A DNA stretch of 35,441 nt from a virus (Duplodnaviria > Heunggongvirae > Uroviricota > Caudoviricetes). Location of the stretch: IMG/VR virus record IMGVR_UViG_2529293216_000013; one strand, written 5' to 3'. A program made the position numbers and the translations under genes. The notes below the pieces were generated by a model that saw nothing but the letters and a program-made list of their open reading frames with translations, did no database searches and was not told the origin of the DNA. Position 1 is the first letter of the stretch, and the number at the start of each line of letters is the position of its first letter. Positions 8,275 to 17,715 of the stretch are shown here, one piece after another.

Positions 8275-8613
8275 CTATTTCCCTGAATTTACGACGAAAC
8301 TGTTCGAGCGGGCTGAAGCACTCATGCTCATAGCCTTCGCGGAGGTAGATAACCCGTTGTGTTTCCGGTTCCCAACGAATGACTCTGACGGGCACTCCGT
8401 AGTGATCTTTGAACCAGCGGTTAACTTGTCGCAAAGGACTGTCTCCTTTTGCCTGTTGAAATCACCCACAGCCCACTCTGCAAAGCTGTGGGTTACAATT
8501 TCCCTGTCACCTGGTACATTCACTGCATAGCAATACTCCACCTTCGCTTTTCCACCCGGTACAGGAAGTGCAATCAGTTGCGAGCGACGGTAGTGTGTTG
8601 TTAAACTGTTCAT
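8275..8613 (-). CDS. Hypothetical ORF between CII-like and O-like genes; frame ambiguous
   Basis: 112 aa ORF in one frame; a second minus-strand frame (8255..8434) has AAGGAG plus TTG start and a more protein-like product ([58 protein letters not shown]) ending in overlap with the O start. Confidence 0.3.
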
Positions 8614-9161
8614 GCGTTAGTTTCTCCACAGTCACGACACGCCACGGCGCCCGGAGCTGCACACTCGCGGGCGTCATTACTTTCTGAAATGCAAAAAATT
8701 TTGTAGACCAGTGCTGCATGCTCCTGCAGCTTCGAAATTGAGAGGTACAGCTCGTCGTTAATTGCTGTCTTCTCATGCGGTTCCACTACACCGTCTTCAA
8801 TTGCTGAACGAATCTGTTTTGAATAACTGCCGATCTGTTCAATGACCTCCAGCAGGCGTTGGTTGATATCGGCGTTGTCCACATCCTCGACATCAGGAAG
8901 AGACACAAAGACGCCATTTGCAGACTGCGCCACAGCGTCAGCAATGAAGTGAGTTCCACCAGCACGTTGCAAAATCATTGCCCATCCCAGCGGGAAAATC
9001 TGATCGCCATCGGCACGAAGGCGGTTAAATAATGCGTTCTCTGTTACATCCAGCCAGTCAGCAGCTTCAGCGTACCCCCCCGGCAACGCTGCGATAGTTT
9101 TTCTGACAGCTTTCACGTACCACTCAGGCTGTTTTTCTACTTTCCAGTGATGCTTACCCAC
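8610..9161 (-). CDS. CII/YdaT-like prophage regulatory protein (putative)
   Basis: 183 aa; immediately downstream of the Cro-like gene with overlapping start/stop; family assignment from memory only. Confidence 0.4.
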
Positions 9162-9414
9162 GGTTCACCTCCTGTTCCTGTGGTTTAAACCCATTCTGGT
9201 TTTGGCTAGATTGAAAACGTGCCGGATAAAGAATCTGCATTTCGCTGACTTCACCCTTAAAAAAATTGGCTAAACGTTCTGCAAGCTCGATAGATGGAAT
9301 CTGCTCCAGCCTCTCAATACGACTCAACGTCGCTGGATTGACTTGAACACCCGCAGCAACATGCTGCAAAGTGAAACCATGCGCCTTACGCACATTTCGT
9401 AATGGTGATTGCAT
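9154..9414 (-). CDS. Cro-like HTH repressor (XRE family)
   Basis: 86 aa; HTH GFTLQHVAAGVQVNPATLSRIERLEQIPSIELAERLANFF; divergent from cI across an operator-rich 97 bp spacer. Confidence 0.65.
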   Translation of the reverse strand: MQSPLRNVRKAHGFTLQHVAAGVQVNPATLSRIERLEQIPSIELAERLANFFKGEVSEMQILYPARFQSSQNQNGFKPQEQEVNRG

Positions 9415-9424
9415 ACGCCCTCCA

Positions 9425-9495
9425 AATATTGCGCGTTATGCATGTTATTTCACGCAATTATTTTGCGCAAGTTGATTTGCTTATCACGCAATAAA
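9425..9495. promoter_or_regulatory. Right operator/promoter region (OR-like) between cro-like and cI
   Basis: Repeated half-site motifs ATTGCGCG, CACGCAAT (twice) and palindromic TTGCGCAA in the divergent intergenic region. Confidence 0.5.
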
Positions 9496-9511
9496 GAAAT
9501 GTAATAAACGC

Positions 9512-10204
9512 ATGAACATAGGAAACCGAGTCAGACAACTTCGCCAAGCGAAGAACATGAAAATCGCCGATCTCGCTGAAGCGATAGGAGTAGATGCGGC
9601 GAACATCTCGCGCTTAGAAACGGGTAAGCAAAAACAATTTACCGAACAAACACTGAGTAATATTGCCAAGAGCTTAGGTGTTGATATTGCTGATCTCTTT
9701 ACCTCTGCCCACAAAAGTAATACTGTATATAAAAACAGTAATAATGAGGATGTTGCGCAGGTGAAGGATGTGTTCCGTATTGAAATGCTGGATATCAGTG
9801 CCAGTGCGGGAAATGGCCTTATCCAGGGCGGTGATGTCATTGATGTGATTCATGCCATCGAATACAGAACTGATAATGCTGTATCAATGTTCGGCGGACG
9901 ACCAGCCAATCACATCAAAGTTATCAACGTTCGTGGGGACAGTATGTGTCCAACCATTGAGCCAGGAGATCTCATCTTCGTTGATGTCAGCATCAATCAG
10001 TTTGATGGTGATGGTATATATGTCTTTGGTTTTGATGACAAAATATACGTTAAAAGACTTCAAATGATTCCTGACAAACTGCTGGTGATTTCTGATAACC
10101 AGATTTACCGTGAATGGGGAATTACTAGCGAAAACGAACACCGATTCATGGTCTTTGGAAAGGTCTTAATCAGTCAGTCGCAAACCCTTAAGAGACATAA
10201 TTAA
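9512..10204 (+). CDS. cI: CI-type prophage repressor (HTH plus S24 LexA-like autopeptidase domain)
   Basis: 230 aa; N-terminal HTH (MKIADLAEAIGVDAANISRLETGK); C-terminal S24 motifs VRGDSMCPTIEPGDLIFVD and YVKRL (Ser/Lys dyad). Confidence 0.85.
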   Translation: MNIGNRVRQLRQAKNMKIADLAEAIGVDAANISRLETGKQKQFTEQTLSNIAKSLGVDIADLFTSAHKSNTVYKNSNNEDVAQVKDVFRIEMLDISASAGNGLIQGGDVIDVIHAIEYRTDNAVSMFGGRPANHIKVINVRGDSMCPTIEPGDLIFVDVSINQFDGDGIYVFGFDDKIYVKRLQMIPDKLLVISDNQIYREWGITSENEHRFMVFGKVLISQSQTLKRHN

Positions 10205-10223
10205 CCTCAATATCCCATCCATC

Positions 10224-10248
10224 GGCCACCGAAAGGTGGCTTTTTATT
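10224..10248 (+). terminator. Rho-independent terminator downstream of cI
   Basis: GGCCACC-gaaa-GGTGGC hairpin followed by TTTTTATT. Confidence 0.65.
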
Positions 10249-10256
10249 ACCTATAA

Positions 10257-10295
10257 ATTTGCATATCTCGCAAATACCACTTGCATATCTCGCAA
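10257..10295. promoter_or_regulatory. Left operator-like tandem dyads (OL-like)
   Basis: Two copies of TTGCATATCTCGCAA (inverted TTGC...GCAA arms), sharing the TCxCGCAA core with the OR-region sites. Confidence 0.45.
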
Positions 10296-10502
10296 TTTAA
10301 TTTTATCTTTTATTCCAGACCAACTACAGGATTACAACAAAATCTGGTTGCAACACGGTGCATGTGTCGTAAGCAGTCAGTAAATGTCAAAAACGAACAG
10401 GCAGGACGCCCACGAAGTAGCCGCCTGGGGCATATGAAGTCCAGGATGATTCGTTGAGTCATGTTGTGCCACTAGGCACTCATGTTAAAGCAGGTGTATG
10501 AA

Positions 10503-10778
10503 ATGAAAGTCCAGATTTTAAACAATAACTGTGAAGTCGTTTGGTCATACGACATAGCCGCCCCTGTAGATCAGAGCGGCGATAGCTGGACCAATGGGAA
10601 ACATCAGATTATGGCTGGAGTTGTGTTCTCTTTACGCCGTGCTTTAGAACAGGCTGAAGTCTTTCCATCAGACCCTGAATGGAAATGGCCTTTTTCTATT
10701 TGTCCAAATTCGGAGAGTACATTTCAGAAAATTGGTCAGAAAGTCGCACTCGAAGAGCATCAGCCAACTGTTTCCTGA
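10503..10778 (+). CDS. Hypothetical protein downstream of cI (rex-position cargo?)
   Basis: ORF with AGGTG Shine-Dalgarno before ATG at 10503; no recognisable motif; 3' end overlaps a convergent ORF. Confidence 0.3.
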   Translation: MKVQILNNNCEVVWSYDIAAPVDQSGDSWTNGKHQIMAGVVFSLRRALEQAEVFPSDPEWKWPFSICPNSESTFQKIGQKVALEEHQPTVS

Positions 10779-10941
10779 TTTTTTCAGGTAACTCGTCGGC
10801 ATCGCAGAAACAACAACGCTCGATCATGTTGAAAGCCGATTCGTAGAACTGTTTTTGCTGAGTGTCGCTGAGACAGGAAAAGAGCGACGTTACGATGATT
10901 TTATTAATTGCATTATCAAGTTCTTTTTCATCAAAAGTCAT
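10696..10941 (-). CDS. Hypothetical small protein (81 aa)
   Basis: Protein-like composition (MTFDEKELDNAINKII...); convergent 83 bp overlap with the previous ORF, so one of the two may be spurious. Confidence 0.3.
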   Translation of the reverse strand: MTFDEKELDNAINKIIVTSLFSCLSDTQQKQFYESAFNMIERCCFCDADELPEKIRKQLADALRVRLSDQFSEMYSPNLDK

Positions 10942-11442
10942 TTGATTTTCCTTTTATGTATACGGGCTTAAAAGGATACCACCGAGCCTGAAGTGGTGAA
11001 AAGACAGGCACATAACAGCTAAGTATTTTCAACCAGAGAGAATCCTTAGCGTTGTGGTGAATGCGGCTCAGCGCACGCGGGTTAAGGTTGAGGCTGACAG
11101 TCGACCTTCTGTGGATACCCACCCGCCTGGTGTGCAACCTTCGCCAGGCACCGGGAGGCACCCGGCACCACAACTTTATGCTGTGTGTAGTCTTAGCGGT
11201 ACCAGCTTGTACCCTTGCTTCCGGCTGGTACCGTCCTTTTTACAAAACAGAGAAGAGCATCACCGGACGACGGGCTCATAACCCAATCCATCCGGGCGGC
11301 TGCCACCGCAGGTGTATAGCGCGGCGATTTTTTTGATACCGATTTGCATTTCATTTGATACCGCTGAAAAACGCCGATACGCAACTTATTTGATACTAAA
11401 TCGGCGCTTTTCTTTTGAGTTTTAGAATGAGTTTTTAAGCGC

Positions 11443-12180
11443 TCATTCACTCTCTTTCAAACCAGTTTTAACTGTTTGTGGTTTTGGGTAAGGCTGGACT
11501 TTGAATAGCTTTGTGTTGAGGCGTTTTCTGGCCCTCTTGTTCAGAAACCGGATGTAACGAAACTGTCGGAACTTATGAACACTGGCTCTGTCAATATTAG
11601 CCCTCAGATGTTCACCTCGTTGTCCGCCTCGTTTAATGGCATTCCTGCAAATCTCGTGATACCACTCGCCATCAAGTTCATAGAATATTGATTCATGGCT
11701 GCCTACATAATCAAAATTGCTTGCCTGATACACGACACCAAGACAGCCACAACGCTCATCTGCAAACGACTGAACCCACTGTACCTGCGGATAAAGCTGC
11801 CTGATTAGCTTGAGCGCGTAACTGATTGCCCTTGATTCGGAGTTTCTCGGCATACAGTCATGCAGCCATAGCCGGTTAAGCTCCATATATTCTCGGTTCT
11901 GCGTACCCGTTACGACGCGTGCACCACTGTTTGGGTTAAGGGCGTAACCCCATTGCATTACGCCAACAAGTTCCCGTTCTGAAAATATGCCCAGATGAAG
12001 GTAGGAGTTATTTACGAAACGGTGGCTGTAATGTTTATTGACGATGACCAGTCTGGCCAGCCAGCAACTTATTGTCTCAACCCGCAACTCACGGGAGCCA
12101 TAACCAACGATATTGTCGTTATAGCGAATAAGTTCAGGCGTGCTGATGATTCGGGATGTGACTTGCTTTCTGTTCCCCAC
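11443..12180 (-). CDS. mom: Mom-like DNA modification protein (GNAT-fold acyltransferase family), putative
   Basis: 245 aa; GNAT-like C-terminal signature [12 protein letters not shown]; start overlapped by a Com-like zinc-finger gene exactly as in phage Mu com/mom. Confidence 0.5.
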
Positions 12181-12334
12181 GACAGGATTTCCTTGTGTAT
12201 GTGGGGTGCTCTGTGGCGCTCGGAGATGTGATTTGATTGAGGGTTTTACAGCGCGGACATTTTACTTCCAGATAACTGAAACTGGCCCGTGCCAGTAGCT
12301 TATTGCAGTGTCGGCACCGTATGTTTCGATACAT
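12134..12334 (-). CDS. com: Com-like zinc-finger translational activator
   Basis: [34 protein letters not shown]...EHPT resembles Mu Com (IRCKNCNKLL...IRCPRCK...EHPT) as recalled; AGGAGG upstream of the internal ATG; 3' end overlaps mom start. Confidence 0.6.
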
Positions 12335-12364
12335 GACCGCATAACCTCCTGCTTTGTTGTTGAT

Positions 12365-12400
12365 GCCTTTCTCATGCAATCGATCGACAAAAACGATCGA
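12365..12400. promoter_or_regulatory. GATC-rich putative com/mom promoter region
   Basis: Two CGATCG sites (GATC at 12371..12374 and 12384..12387) plus TCGAT repeats within about 30 bp upstream of com. Confidence 0.3.
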
Positions 12401-12448
12401 TTCGATTTGTTTAATTGATACAACAAATAGATTGAAAAGTCATCAACA

Positions 12449-12913
12449 ATGATTCAGGGAGGTGATTATTTACTTAAAGAAAACGAAGAGTTAGGTGGTG
12501 AAAACGATCATAAAATGATCATTTTATTGACTTTTTATACAGTGAAGGTAGGATCACGCGTATATGTAGTATGTTTCAAATCAACAGGATACTACATAAA
12601 AGTGAAACCCAGCATAGCTGGAACTATGCTGGGTCAATCTGTAAAAACTTGCATCAATGCTTTACTTCGAGCTCGTGGCGTATCCTATGATATTCCCCGG
12701 TCTCCTGTAAAGCAGAGATGCATAAAAAGGAGATCTTTATCATGGATGAAAGAGCCTGTTTGCCCTGCCTGTAAGACTCCCTTACAGCTCATCTATCGCC
12801 GTTCTCGATCTCAAAATGGCAAGACATACAAACCCAAAAATGCTTCCTGTTTCAGGATGCTGATATGTCCTGCCTGTTCTCCCAGGAGGGAAAATACACA
12901 AAACGTGCATTAA
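12449..12913 (+). CDS. Hypothetical protein with C-terminal double CPAC zinc-ribbon motif
   Basis: ...VCPACKTPLQ...(26 aa)...ICPACSP; N-terminal part is low-complexity and may not be coding. Confidence 0.25.
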   Translation: MIQGGDYLLKENEELGGENDHKMIILLTFYTVKVGSRVYVVCFKSTGYYIKVKPSIAGTMLGQSVKTCINALLRARGVSYDIPRSPVKQRCIKRRSLSWMKEPVCPACKTPLQLIYRRSRSQNGKTYKPKNASCFRMLICPACSPRRENTQNVH

Positions 12914-12951: not shown

Positions 12952-13197
12952 TTACATCATAGTACCGTCAGTTCCGGGCTGAACCGGCTCTGGTTGCTCT
13001 ACGGGTTGAGGATCATTTTCCGTGCTGTTTTCAGCCGGAGAACGGCCAACCATTCGGGCCAGCACTTCATCAACATATGCGTCGATTTGTGCCTCAAAAT
13101 CCTTGCGAACCTGCGCCTTCAGCACGCGGTTCACTTCTTCAGAATAAAGTGCCTGTTTGACAAGCTCTTCAGTAACCGTGCCTTTAATCTCTGGCAT
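12952..13197 (-). CDS. Hypothetical acidic small protein (81 aa)
   Basis: AAGGAG Shine-Dalgarno 7 nt before ATG; acidic, Pro/Glu-rich C-terminus. Confidence 0.4.
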   Translation of the reverse strand: MPEIKGTVTEELVKQALYSEEVNRVLKAQVRKDFEAQIDAYVDEVLARMVGRSPAENSTENDPQPVEQPEPVQPGTDGTMM

Positions 13198-13232
13198 GAA
13201 TATTCTCCTTTTGCAGGTATATTGCCCCGTTA

Positions 13233-13415
13233 TCAGAGCGGGGTCGGGTCGTTTGGGGATGACGGTGCCTGTGCTGTTTTACTGAGTTTTTCAGCTGCCG
13301 CATCATCAATTTTACGGCGAATATAATTTCTGATGACCTTATAACCACCGCTCACCAGATATAACGCACTGACCACAGCGCAGAAATAAAGCAGCATTGT
13401 ATGAACGAATGTCAT
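13233..13415 (-). CDS. Hypothetical small membrane protein (60 aa, one TM)
   Basis: Hydrophobic segment MLLYFCAVVSALYLVSGG followed by basic stretch. Confidence 0.35.
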   Translation of the reverse strand: MTFVHTMLLYFCAVVSALYLVSGGYKVIRNYIRRKIDDAAAEKLSKTAQAPSSPNDPTPL

Positions 13416-13561
13416 ATAACCTTACCTTTGATATTGACTACATAATTCGTTATCGGGTAAAAACATCGAAGCGACTGATAACCACTCCTTCGGGAGTATT
13501 TTTATTTTCCTTTATGGGTTAGGTAGCTCCCGCCAGCCATATCATGACCGGCGGGATTTTT

Positions 13562-15601
13562 TTATTCTGTTACCGCTTTTTTCACTTCCACCACAATGCT
13601 GTCAATCAGCACCGGGTAAGTTGCATTTTTTGTGATATCCGTTACGCGGAGTTTGTCCACCGGGAAAGTTCCTACTGGTGACTGCGTCAGGGTAAACGCG
13701 GCACCATCCTGACCATCAATAACCGGAATAACCTGAAGGCTGTTATTTCCTGCAAAACGGAAGGCCAGCGTATGCCATTCATTATCAAATGCACCAAAGG
13801 TTCCCAGTTTCTGGTTATTTGTTGCCACTTTTGCATTGTGGTACATCACATTCAGGTCTTTTGCGTCTGTCTGGATGTAGAACGATGCCAGCAGATTATT
13901 CCCTGCATCCCCTGTCAGGGTGACACCCTGCGGCAGAGAGGAAACCGGCCAGTAAAGCCCCATGACATACTGGTTTGCCACCAGGTCGCCAGGTACTTTA
14001 AAACGACAACTGATTAAACCACCATTTTTCAGCAGTTCAGCACCAGTACCGGCATCATGATCCAGATACCAGGATGATTTACCTGTTTCCTTGGTCAGTT
14101 TCATTGCCTTACCACCTGTGCCTCCTGCATCACTGATAATTTCAGCTTTACCGCCAGCCGGCTCCCAGCCCTGGGCTTTCAGATTTCCTTCTGACTCACT
14201 GACACGATAAGACAGCAGTGTTGTGGTTACTGCTTCAGTTTCTGAAGGTGACGGCACTGGTGCTTCAGTTTCAGAAGATGGAACATCGGCTTTTACTGTG
14301 GTTCGCCCCGCATGAGTCAGAACTGCCGTGGCCAGACGGTCGGAAATAATCCCACGACGTGCCCATGAACTGAAATGGCTGGCCCGGTCCGCAGATGTCC
14401 AGGTGGCGGCACTGTTACGCCACGTTGAGCCGTAATAACCAATGGATTCAATATCCGGGTCTTCTGCCGGATTGTTGGTGGGTACATTCGCGTCATTTTC
14501 ATCTGTCATTAATGGAACGAAATGAATGTTTTTATCTGTTTTGTTTTTGTAGCCGCCATAGATTGCCTGGTATGCCGGTTCATTTTTCTGTTTCCAGAAA
14601 TACGTGGTATCGCCACAAATCCACGGAACGCCAGCAGCACTGCCACCGGTACACTGTTCCGCCTGTTCAGCCAGGTCTGCGCGGAATTTTTCCACCATCG
14701 CCAGAAACAGCGCGGAATGCTCCGTCGGCTTCGCATCAATATCAAACTCGCCCTGCATCCACACCACAGCAAGCAGGCGGTTTTTCGGGTTCTTCGCCAG
14801 TGCCGCTTTTGTCCGGCTGATTAAGTCCTTATACAGCGGCTTATCCACACCCCAGCGGGCTGAGTCCTCTGAAGCACCCGTGCTGTCACTGTACGTGCCG
14901 TCAGCACCCGCCGTGAATGCAGAACCACCACGGCAGCAGGGAACCAGCAGAATCCCCGCATCTGCCGGAATAAACGGCAGCAGTTTTTTGGCAATGTGAA
15001 GCCCCTGACCCACGGTGCCATATTGCCCTTTAGCCACATCCGCTTTCGGGTGATTTTTTCCACTCATATCCTGCACATCATGCAGACAGTGGTCGGCCAG
15101 AATGATGTCGTTATACTGACAGGCTTTACCTCCCGGCGTGACTGTACTGCGACGGGCTAACTGCATAATACGCGGTTCGGGGCGGTCATATGTCTCCGGC
15201 AGTGGCAGACCTTCACCGTAAGCCATACCGTTTGACTGACCAGCAAGAACCACCACGTAATACCAGGAAGGGGAGCTGGAAGCAGTTTCATTTCCTGACG
15301 GACGGGTATGTGTTTCAGCATTATCCCAGTCTGACGGTTCAGCAGTACCGGCAACATCAGCACTTAACGGAATGACCGCACCAATACCCGCTCCGGTAAT
15401 TTCCACACTCGGATCACCGGATACTGGCCTTACCCACAGGCAATCCCGTGTATTAAAACTGATGAGACAGTCAGCAAATGTCATTCCTCCTTTTGTTTCG
15501 GCCGGAGGAAAGGGAGCCTCAAGAAATGCCGCTGTACCACCGGAAACTTTAACAGTAAAGTTTCCGGGCATTGATGATAGTTGAACCCATTTGGACGTCA
15601 T
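13562..15601 (-). CDS. Prophage sialate O-acetylesterase-like protein (NanS-p-like, SASA/SGNH esterase core)
   Basis: 679 aa; motif VVVLAGQSNGMAYGEG (GQSN catalytic Ser motif); size and architecture resemble NanS-p paralogs of E. coli prophages. Confidence 0.65.
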   Translation of the reverse strand: MTSKWVQLSSMPGNFTVKVSGGTAAFLEAPFPPAETKGGMTFADCLISFNTRDCLWVRPVSGDPSVEITGAGIGAVIPLSADVAGTAEPSDWDNAETHTRPSGNETASSSPSWYYVVVLAGQSNGMAYGEGLPLPETYDRPEPRIMQLARRSTVTPGGKACQYNDIILADHCLHDVQDMSGKNHPKADVAKGQYGTVGQGLHIAKKLLPFIPADAGILLVPCCRGGSAFTAGADGTYSDSTGASEDSARWGVDKPLYKDLISRTKAALAKNPKNRLLAVVWMQGEFDIDAKPTEHSALFLAMVEKFRADLAEQAEQCTGGSAAGVPWICGDTTYFWKQKNEPAYQAIYGGYKNKTDKNIHFVPLMTDENDANVPTNNPAEDPDIESIGYYGSTWRNSAATWTSADRASHFSSWARRGIISDRLATAVLTHAGRTTVKADVPSSETEAPVPSPSETEAVTTTLLSYRVSESEGNLKAQGWEPAGGKAEIISDAGGTGGKAMKLTKETGKSSWYLDHDAGTGAELLKNGGLISCRFKVPGDLVANQYVMGLYWPVSSLPQGVTLTGDAGNNLLASFYIQTDAKDLNVMYHNAKVATNNQKLGTFGAFDNEWHTLAFRFAGNNSLQVIPVIDGQDGAAFTLTQSPVGTFPVDKLRVTDITKNATYPVLIDSIVVEVKKAVTE

Positions 15602-16687: not shown

Positions 16688-17715
16688 AAGTGCAGTAGTT
16701 CAAAAAACAGATTATCTGAATAAATATATGATGATTTTGTCTTTTCAACAAAAACAAGGTGAAATAATGGAGCTTATTAACGTAAAACGATATTACCCGG
16801 AACACAAACCCTATGGTGAGGATGTTCAGTATTTCCAGAGTGAGGACGGAAGGGATTTTTATGAATCTATCCCGCTTTTCACAAAGAAATACAAACTCTG
16901 TATTTCGCCTGTAACGGGTATTATCTGCTCTGTTGCTGAAGATGTCTCTGCTTTATATCCGGCAGGTTTTACTGTTGTTGAAGTGGACGAACTGCCGGAA
17001 GGTGTGAATATTGACGGTAACTGGCAGTTTTCTGATGGCCTGATATCAAAGGTGCCGGTAAACTGGAAGACGGTTGCTGAAAAGCGCCGCTCATCGCTGC
17101 TCCAGGAAGCCAACGAAACTGTGGATGACTGGAAAACGGAATTAAAACTGGACATGATTAGCGATGAAAATAAATTACAGCTGACGCGCTGGATGGCGTA
17201 TATCCGACAGCTTAAAGAAATGCACTTTAATGATATTGCCAGTGAGGGGCATTACCAGGCGATTCCCTGGCCGGAAAAACCGGAATAATTCAGAGGGTGC
17301 ATTCAGCACCCTTTTCTGTGGTTTACACTGAACTTACCGTTCTCCAGGCATTATTAATATAAATCTGAACCGGGCGATAATAGACCCCACCGATATTGTC
17401 CGCAGACCGGGAGCCGGTTTCCTGCACGTTAATTCCGGAAAGCATACAACCGGAAGGTGCGCTGTAATTCCATGACATTTCATTGCCTCCGGGTGAATGA
17501 TAGCTCTGTGCTCCAAGCTGAACATTCTGTACATACCGGCCATCTGCGGTTGACTGCGTCATTCCTGACGTGATGTTGATATCCAGCGTTCCGTCAAAAG
17601 GAACACCATTAATATTTCTTGGGGTGGCGAGTCTGTTTGCTGCCACGGCGGTTCCACCCGATGGCAGGGCATCAGCAGCCTTATTTACCGTTTCCCGTAA
17701 ACCAACGTTTAAGAA
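16318..17715. mobile_element. Invertible tail-fibre segment (G/P-segment-like) between inverted crossover sites
   Basis: gix/cix-like sites AAACCTTCGGTTTACGGGA near 16320..16343 and inverted partial copy near 17692..17712; both lie inside tail-fibre reading frames at the conserved ...GLR(D/E)TVN(R/K)AA(N/D)ALP... junction. Confidence 0.55.
16767..17288 (+). CDS. Tail fibre assembly protein (Tfa/U-like)
   Basis: Start MELINVKRYYPEHKP with Shine-Dalgarno; C-terminus ...LTRWMAYIRQLKEMHFNDIASEGHYQAIPWPEKPE typical of Tfa chaperones. Confidence 0.7.
   Translation: MELINVKRYYPEHKPYGEDVQYFQSEDGRDFYESIPLFTKKYKLCISPVTGIICSVAEDVSALYPAGFTVVEVDELPEGVNIDGNWQFSDGLISKVPVNWKTVAEKRRSSLLQEANETVDDWKTELKLDMISDENKLQLTRWMAYIRQLKEMHFNDIASEGHYQAIPWPEKPE

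Follow-up and report, generated by a model that had tools for sequence, protein, structure and literature searches.

[quoted passage not shown] Dam/OxyR control of mom is a textbook case which, to our knowledge, is known from Mu alone. agn43 (flu) is an autotransporter gene located in a cryptic prophage, and its phase variation has been demonstrated. The OxyR footprints in Mu and agn43 which serve for comparison below are taken from secondary citations and general background.

Mu itself depends on host Dam (PMC4461284, PMC2909390). Its C box (ATTATgccccaATAAC), a poor -35, the spacer and the TAAGAT -10 are all located downstream of the proximal GATC (PMC4461284). In P22 gtr, pairs of GATCs 13 bp apart lie inside OxyR half-sites, and methylation abolishes OxyR binding (PMC2909390); GATC3/4 are at positions -46/-33 from the start (Broadbent et al. 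2010, PMC2909390).

The window is the whole stretch of 35,441 nucleotides analysed here. Its mom gene overlaps the end of com, and both are at the right end of a Mu-like genome, as in the Mu-type Pmom layout (Table 1). RefSeq genomes annotate the product of com as a Com family protein. A literature search found no work on this locus and no paper that mentions ECs4996-4998.

A first-pass annotation drew attention to two CGATCG sites just upstream of com, likened them to the clustered GATC sites of Mu mom, and suggested that a methyltransferase encoded by the same prophage could set their methylation state. The GATC pair probably (we would put it at about 0.7) belongs to a two-part OxyR-type operator (12428-12383, minus strand), of which it would be the methylation-sensitive half and which would control com-mom. 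The best reading of the sequence is a known kind of switch, whose operator would be positioned as in agn43 and gtr rather than as in Mu.

Table 1. Features of the window with their coordinates, and half-sites of the systems used for comparison
Feature	Coordinates	Strand	Sequence	Remarks
Dam-family N6-adenine methyltransferase	6180..6833	-		Pfam PF05869, E 4e-45; in the lambdoid prophage, outside the Mu-like element
Right end of the Sp18-type Mu-like element, junction with the lambdoid prophage	11313..11316		TGTATAGCGCGG...	lambdoid identity to FRIK2455 ends at 11315
mom	11443..12180	-		245 aa; Pfam PF25680 Mom, E 4e-77, full-length match; annotated Mom family protein
com	12134..12334	-		66 aa, zinc-ribbon translational activator homologue; Pfam PF10122 Zn_ribbon_Com, E 1.9e-12; ATG at 12334
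com Shine-Dalgarno	12345..12350	-	AGGAGG	read from the sequence; aligned with Mu GGAGGT
Favoured candidate promoter (predicted)	12360..12390	-	TTGTCG-N19-CATCAA	-35 at 12390-12385, 19-bp spacer, -10 at 12365-12360; predicted start near 12353
Inverted repeat	12378..12402		AATCGATCG-N7-CGATCGATT	perfect, 9 bp; holds both GATCs as arms
Proximal GATC	12382..12385		CGATCG (12381-12386)	corresponds to Mu GATC III
Proximal OxyR-type half-site	12383..12397	-	ATCGTTTTTGTCGAT	bracketed by the GATC pair; 7/10 specified positions of ATAGnTnnnAnCTAT
Distal GATC	12395..12398		CGATCG (12394-12399)	corresponds to Mu GATC II; invariant in 36/36 distinct anchored upstream sequences
Distal OxyR-type half-site	12414..12428	-	ATTTGTTGTATCAAT	without GATC; 7/10 at offset -31
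Alternative candidate promoter (predicted)	12415..12443	-	ATGACT, TATCAA	-35 at 12443-12438, 17-bp spacer, -10 at 12420-12415; start near 12408
agn43, proximal half-site			ATCGTTTATATCGAT	form of the OxyR dimer site ATAGnTnnnAnCTAT
P22 gtr, proximal half-site OxyR(C)			ATCGCTTGTATCGAT	form of ATAGnTnnnAnCTAT
P22 gtr, half-site OxyR(A)			ATCGGTAACAACGAT	form of ATAGnTnnnAnCTAT
Mu, proximal half-site			ATCGGTAATACAGAT	form of ATAGnTnnnAnCTAT
gtr, partner half-site			ATAGATAAAAACTAT	offset -32; 10/10
agn43, partner half-site			ATAGAATAAAACGAT	offset -32; 8/10
Mu, partner half-site			ATAGAAAACGACGAT	offset -31; 7/10

The GATC pair and its OxyR-type half-sites

The two CGATCG sites are indeed present, at 12381 and 12394, inside the interval 12365..12400. 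Their GATCs start 13 bp apart, 64 and 51 nt before the com ATG, and the sites span 48-64 bp upstream of it. The equivalent GATCs of the Sakai-type O157 sequence NC_002695.2 are at 5078641-44 and 5078654-57. The analogy with Mu mom holds more precisely than had been claimed: the sites are the equivalents of Mu GATC II and III, at the same distance of 13 bp, with an OxyR-type half-site between them. As in Mu, they lie upstream of overlapping com and mom genes, the distal half-site is found 31 bp upstream, the proximal half-site has the form ATCG-N7-(C/A)GAT, and the motif ATCAATTAAA is shared, as is GATCGATT after GATC III.

The arrangement as a whole, on the contrary, is not that of Mu. The window has two GATCs where Mu has three, the proximal GATC is at -51 from the com ATG instead of -78, i.e., 27 bp closer, and the late-activator (C) box which lies between GATC III and the -10 in Mu has no counterpart upstream of com. 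That only two GATCs are present is explained by the last letters of the distal half-site, CAAT instead of GATC; in Mu, in agn43 and in the related lineages with three GATCs, the distal half-site ends in GATC I.

The window sequence GATCGTTTTTGTCGATCGAT can be compared with GATCGTTTATATCGATCGAT of agn43, in which the distal half-site is offset by 32 bp, and the sister lineage L040 (GATCGTTTTTATCGATCGATAAG) is identical to agn43 at 22 of 23 positions. As is predicted for the window, the agn43 operator lies across the core promoter or the leader, but agn43 has three GATCs and its distal half-site contains the -10 (TAGAAT). P22 gtr likewise has a 13-bp GATC pair inside one half-site and a GATC-free partner 32 bp upstream. 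It differs in that OxyR(A) is present as a third half-site and holds another GATC pair, which gives two alternative OxyR positions and an activating state; no third OxyR half-site was found in the window.

In the window the 13-bp GATC pair brackets a half-site resembling ATAGnTnnnAnCTAT, a layout common to agn43, gtr A and C, and Mu, and this 15-mer is close to the half-sites of agn43, gtr and Mu at which Dam blocks OxyR in experiments; position 10 of this half-site is G instead of A. A second half-site is present at the distance of 31-32 bp, start to start, leaving 16 bp between the two, although a score of 7/10 occurs at 0.4% of window positions. Another partner, the contiguous half-site ATCAATTAAACAAAT (N7 register), scores only 6/10 and was replaced by the 31-bp register common to the verified sites. 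The overall match to the OxyR consensus is modest (14/20). Several unrelated sites in the window reach 13-14 out of 20, so that the motif score proves nothing by itself, and it was rejected as a stand-alone proof. The case for OxyR depends instead on the geometry, the resemblance to verified sites and the conservation.

GATC is scarcer in the window than expected (99 occurrences, compared to 132 +/- 10 in shuffles), and adjacent GATCs at most 13 bp apart occur three times, compared to about 3.5 expected from simple arithmetic on the counts. According to first-order Markov models, the probability of at least two GATCs in the 114-bp intergenic stretch is 0.056-0.084. The density of GATCs near com is thus within chance, and clustering, which is not significant on its own, was dropped as an argument for function. 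The exact spacing, the inverted repeat and, above all, the conservation of the pair at a fixed distance from com do exceed chance: a pair at exactly 13 bp has a probability of 0.0009-0.002. That of the perfect 9-bp inverted repeat is 0.002-0.004.

Conservation among com loci

Homologues of com and their flanks were compared in 80 IMG/VR loci and in 80 loci taken from one genome per species. The 13-bp pair is present in 69 of the 80 IMG/VR loci, which are not independent and represent only about nine lineages, and in all four Enterobacterales representatives (Citrobacter braakii, Salmonella enterica, Apirhabdus and an Enterobacteriaceae MAG). The remaining 76 representative loci, from Haemophilus, Acinetobacter, Moraxella, Eikenella, Methylophaga and others, all lack it. 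This distribution, kept among relatives and restricted to Enterobacterales, is the one expected of an operator tied to hosts with Dam and OxyR.

In the lineage of the window and in two others, the pair is at -64/-51 or -65/-52 from the com start, even though Com is just 60-76% identical across these lineages and the flanks are otherwise unalignable. The proximal GATC is 50-57 nt from the com ATG in the window and in 68 IMG/VR loci. The anchored alignment of 36 distinct sequences has a sole invariant block, cGATCg.t.....cGATCgaT, and mostly unconserved flanks. The T6 of the bracketed 15-mer is kept in nearly all lineages. The central 7 bp of the site vary from one lineage to another, and even flip orientation (T-rich or A-rich). 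A partner half-site at the 31-bp offset, scoring 7-8, is found in eight of ten com lineages, and within the lineage of the window the conserved block begins exactly at the distal half-site, with different cargo genes upstream.

The largest of these lineages has a third GATC, 18 bp upstream of the pair. Wherever a third GATC is present, the sites are spaced 18/13 or 19/13, which equals the spacing in Mu (18/13; L004 2160, 2178, 2191) and in agn43 (19/13). The Mu-type relatives L078, L094 and L110 retain the Mu layout with a C-type box.

Among 5426 complete E. coli genomes, 233 carry the putative operator, and many of these are STEC. The allele of the window is the most frequent in E. coli, with an identity of at least 99% in 175 of 235 records. 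The operator is conserved across many genomic contexts. The data indicate that the putative operator is a conserved, portable part of the com-mom cassettes across enterobacterial Mu-like prophages. If this is confirmed, a family of candidate phase-variable loci would be added to EHEC genomes.

Some loci depart from this pattern. The GATC II-III block is deleted in L073, L076 and L077, from IMG/VR, and in L090 (a 'Vagococcus sp.' contig which is probably enterobacterial DNA), while the downstream TGnTATCAT -10 and com are kept; these variants are predicted to be OxyR-blind alleles. In L039, L041 and L042, half-site-like elements bearing GATC follow each other at steps of 31 and 32 bp, about 130 bp upstream of com. 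The GATCs of L041 and L042, at -128, -96, -65 and -52, give an arrangement that resembles the three-half-site switch of gtr, with an outermost element which scores 4-6/10. Loci with two GATCs, three GATCs, three half-sites and operator deletions would, if OxyR control is confirmed, form a natural series for the effects of OxyR position on repression.

Promoter placement and the proposed switch

GATC III is just 47 bp away from the com ATG. By geometry the putative operator has to overlap the core promoter or the leader of a transcript whose start is only predicted, with two candidates, and there is no room downstream for a Mu-type C box, -35, 19-bp spacer and -10. A search of the com strand for a CATAACC-type Mu C box (CATAACCCC) found none; the only nearby match of this type was rejected, since it lies on the opposite strand and across the com Shine-Dalgarno, with a spacing that does not fit. 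The Sp18 late box CCGCAAArCCyGCC-N16-TAyGCT, derived from two promoters only (Plys and PI), is absent upstream of com.

A generic promoter scan returned nothing on the com strand in the intergenic region. A crude PWM found no convincing sigma-70 promoter in the allele of the window, and the same PWM also misses the true Pmom of Mu. The candidate TTGTCG-N19-CATCAA is favoured: with a start near 12353, it would place the GATCs at about -45/-32, like GATC3/4 of P22 gtr. Its -35 overlaps GATC III. It is the top match of the PWM in L016 and L020 and not in the window allele, which carries the weakest hexamer, CATCAA (three of six matches, outside the top PWM matches). In sister alleles the -10 hexamer is TATCAT, as in L016 and L020, or TATCAA, and the spacer is constant in length and variable in sequence; sister lineages have a good -10 starting 7 nt after GATC III, either TATACT or the extended form TGnTATCAT.

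The alternative candidate, further upstream, has an ATGAC which is kept between the window and L022/L023 despite differing upstream flanks. Its start, near 12408, would put the GATC pair in the transcribed leader, by analogy with agn43.

Among the sister alleles, the stretch of about 16 nt between GATCGATT and the candidate -10 (12366-12381 in the window, minus strand) is hypervariable with a constant length in L016, L020, L022, L023 and L034. The -10 alternates between TATCAT, TATCAA and CATCAA in otherwise near-identical alleles, and the leader of L022 has an extra CAACAA repeat.

The proposed switch would work as follows. When both GATCs are unmethylated, or possibly hemimethylated, host OxyR would bind ATTTGTTGTATCAAT and ATCGTTTTTGTCGAT, and the bound OxyR would block the transcription of com-mom because the operator, it is proposed, overlaps the core promoter or the transcript start. 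Methylation of both GATCs by host Dam would exclude OxyR and make com-mom transcribable. Bound OxyR is expected to repress under either promoter placement. We infer OxyR binding, methylation sensitivity, repression and the position of the promoter from the sequence.

In Enterobacterales, the majority form of the locus is the short architecture, with the operator probably over the promoter and without an activator box. The com-mom genes could even be an autonomous Dam/OxyR-gated cassette, heritably ON or OFF in lysogens, like agn43 and gtr, and not strictly late lytic; this extension of the proposal is speculative and quite unlikely. If it is true, one epigenetic switch controls another DNA modifier, Mom, which would lead to subpopulations with hypermodified DNA.

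The Sp18 lysis and head late promoters (L005 10640-10690 and 18558-18600) share the sequence TCCTGAaATyCCGCAAArCCyGCC-N16-TAyGCT, which is unlike the CATAACCCC box of Mu. A copy with one mismatch is found upstream of the gene of the C homologue (L005 10151). This late box is a candidate binding site for the Mor/C-type activators of Sp18.

Other readings of the site and the mosaic make-up of the window

The GATC pair might be sensitive to Dam and yet independent of OxyR. Methylation could alter -35 recognition where the -35 (TTGTCGATC) overlaps a GATC, as at the IS10 transposase promoter; SeqA could be recruited to the hemimethylated sites following replication; or the 9-bp inverted repeat could be the site of a dimeric regulator encoded by the phage. 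The perfect palindrome AATCGATCG-N7-CGATCGATT would suit any symmetric dimer, the candidate -35 is overlapped by GATC III, and the OxyR match is only 7/10 per half-site, with comparable scores arising by chance. On the other hand, the 13-bp spacing, T6 and the second half-site at 31/32 bp reproduce the geometry of the verified OxyR/Dam sites (PMC2909390). A sequence-specific phage regulator is unlikely because the central 7 bp vary and flip orientation, and the site is common to lineages which have different late regulators. The three variants, taken together, seem unlikely.

The suggestion that the lambdoid-type methyltransferase (Table 1) sets the methylation state of the region upstream of com depends on the origin of each part of the window, which is a three-part mosaic of a lambdoid prophage, the right end of an Sp18-type Mu-like prophage and e14/Sp2-like prophage sequence. 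Positions 1-11315 are 100% identical to the lambdoid prophage beside thrW/proA in O157:H7 FRIK2455, and in other O157 genomes the lambdoid sequence is uninterrupted through the junction point. The Mu-like prophage contributes its right end, from about 11313 to about 17700, which is 100% identical to Sakai Sp18, whose annotated feature terminates at the equivalent of about 11310. This part contains mom, com, a 154-aa ORF, DUF826, DUF1378, a SASA/DUF6645 esterase and gin. Past about 17700 the sequence runs on into the pinE side of the e14/Sp2-like prophage.

The methyltransferase and the com-mom genes are therefore in different mobile elements, separated by the junction near 11313, and the earlier statement that the same prophage carries both has to be withdrawn. 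No single element holds the methyltransferase together with the GATC operator. In FRIK2455 the enzyme is annotated as 'phage N-6-adenine-methyltransferase' within the uninterrupted lambdoid prophage, and the complete Sp18 of Sakai has no annotated methyltransferase. The correction matters for annotation: the neighbouring Dam-like gene and com-mom do not form one circuit.

The enzyme is a genuine member of the PF05869 Dam family, Dam homologues have been reported in STEC prophages (PMC6602927), and over-produced Dam locks the switches of agn43 and gtr (PMC2909390); if the enzyme is specific for GATC, a burst of it at lambdoid induction could therefore act in trans. Against this, the Sakai copy of Sp18 sits in sorM, a long way from any gene of this kind, the operator has been kept in many different genomic settings, and host Dam suffices in Mu. 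A circuit with the lambdoid enzyme within the same element is excluded, and a trans effect is conceivable only if the enzyme targets GATC. Control of the com upstream region by this enzyme is highly unlikely.

Several observations concern the junctions themselves. The Mu-like right end (TGTATAGCGCGGCGA..., window 11300-11320) interrupts a lambdoid gene, annotated in FRIK2455 as a frameshifted hypothetical, and this insertion site is other than sorM, the location of Sp18 in Sakai. At the opposite end, positions 17684-17710 form a hybrid invertase crossover site with a core (17699-17709, AAACCAACGTT) common to both halves. The left half is identical to the G-segment site of Sp18, which is Mu-like, and the right half to the site beside pinE of the e14/Sp2-like prophage. 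It appears that a Gin/Pin-type invertase recombined the sites of two different prophages. If this is so, the outcome would be an inversion of about 30 kb and a Mu-like prophage cut in two, of which only the right 6.4 kb remains in the window.

A module of lambdoid (Stx-phage) type, with the SASA/DUF6645 esterase, DUF1378 and DUF826, lies at 12952-15601 (minus strand), between gin and com. Its presence within the Mu-like prophage points to recombination between a Mu-like and a lambdoid phage. An STnc100-like sRNA match (Rfam RF02076) is found in the lambdoid prophage at 11021-11243 on the plus strand, some 70 bp away from the point where the Mu-like element is inserted; it covers the full-length model with an E value of 2.5e-7, and its score of 43 bits is below the gathering score of 47.

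The inverted repeat may also be read at the RNA level. From an upstream start, it would form a 9-bp hairpin in the com leader, as part of a larger fold masking the ribosome-binding site. An upstream promoter candidate exists. The 141 nt from 12470 to 12330 (minus strand) have a predicted fold of -41.5 kcal/mol (z = -3.9) in which the CGAUCG hairpin is intact, and a CACCUCC (12464-12458) predicted to pair with the com Shine-Dalgarno could silence read-through transcripts. However, this anti-Shine-Dalgarno and the long-range arms are missing in the sister alleles L020, L022 and L023, and an Rfam search gave no relevant family. The hairpin arms never vary and so give no covariation, and conservation concerns the GATC tetranucleotides and the distance between them rather than pairing potential in general. 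The RNA reading is scarcely probable.

A chance cluster without function would fit the probability of about 0.06-0.08 for at least two GATCs in 114 bp and the three close pairs of the window, which agree with the expectation, but the comparative data argue strongly against pure chance, with an exact spacing at P of about 0.001-0.002 and a pair kept unchanged in about nine lineages and missing outside Enterobacterales, and this reading can practically be set aside.

Other GATCs are found further upstream of com. The interval 12382-12555, with five GATCs in 174 bp, is the densest in the window (P 0.002-0.006 for five in 266 bp). Three of these, at 12506, 12517 and 12552, are spaced by 11 and 35 bp, not 13; they are restricted to the Sp18-type insertion, show no conservation alongside com, and were rejected as parts of the operator. 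The perfect 18-bp palindrome ATAAAATGATCATTTTAT (12511-12528) is centred on one of them, and one falls within a plus-strand promoter-like TTGACT-16-TAGGAT (window 12506-12555).

The annotated 154-aa ORF in this region (12449-12913, plus strand) has neither a Shine-Dalgarno sequence nor a Pfam family. Its single match is PHROG 26524, of unknown function, over residues 1-104. In sister loci a different divergent ORF occupies the same slot (1951-2244 in L023). The last 55 codons (12746-12913) could encode a separate CxxC...CxxC zinc-ribbon peptide, and a strong terminator-like hairpin, a 13-bp stem followed by a T run, lies inside the ORF on the minus strand (12606-12635).
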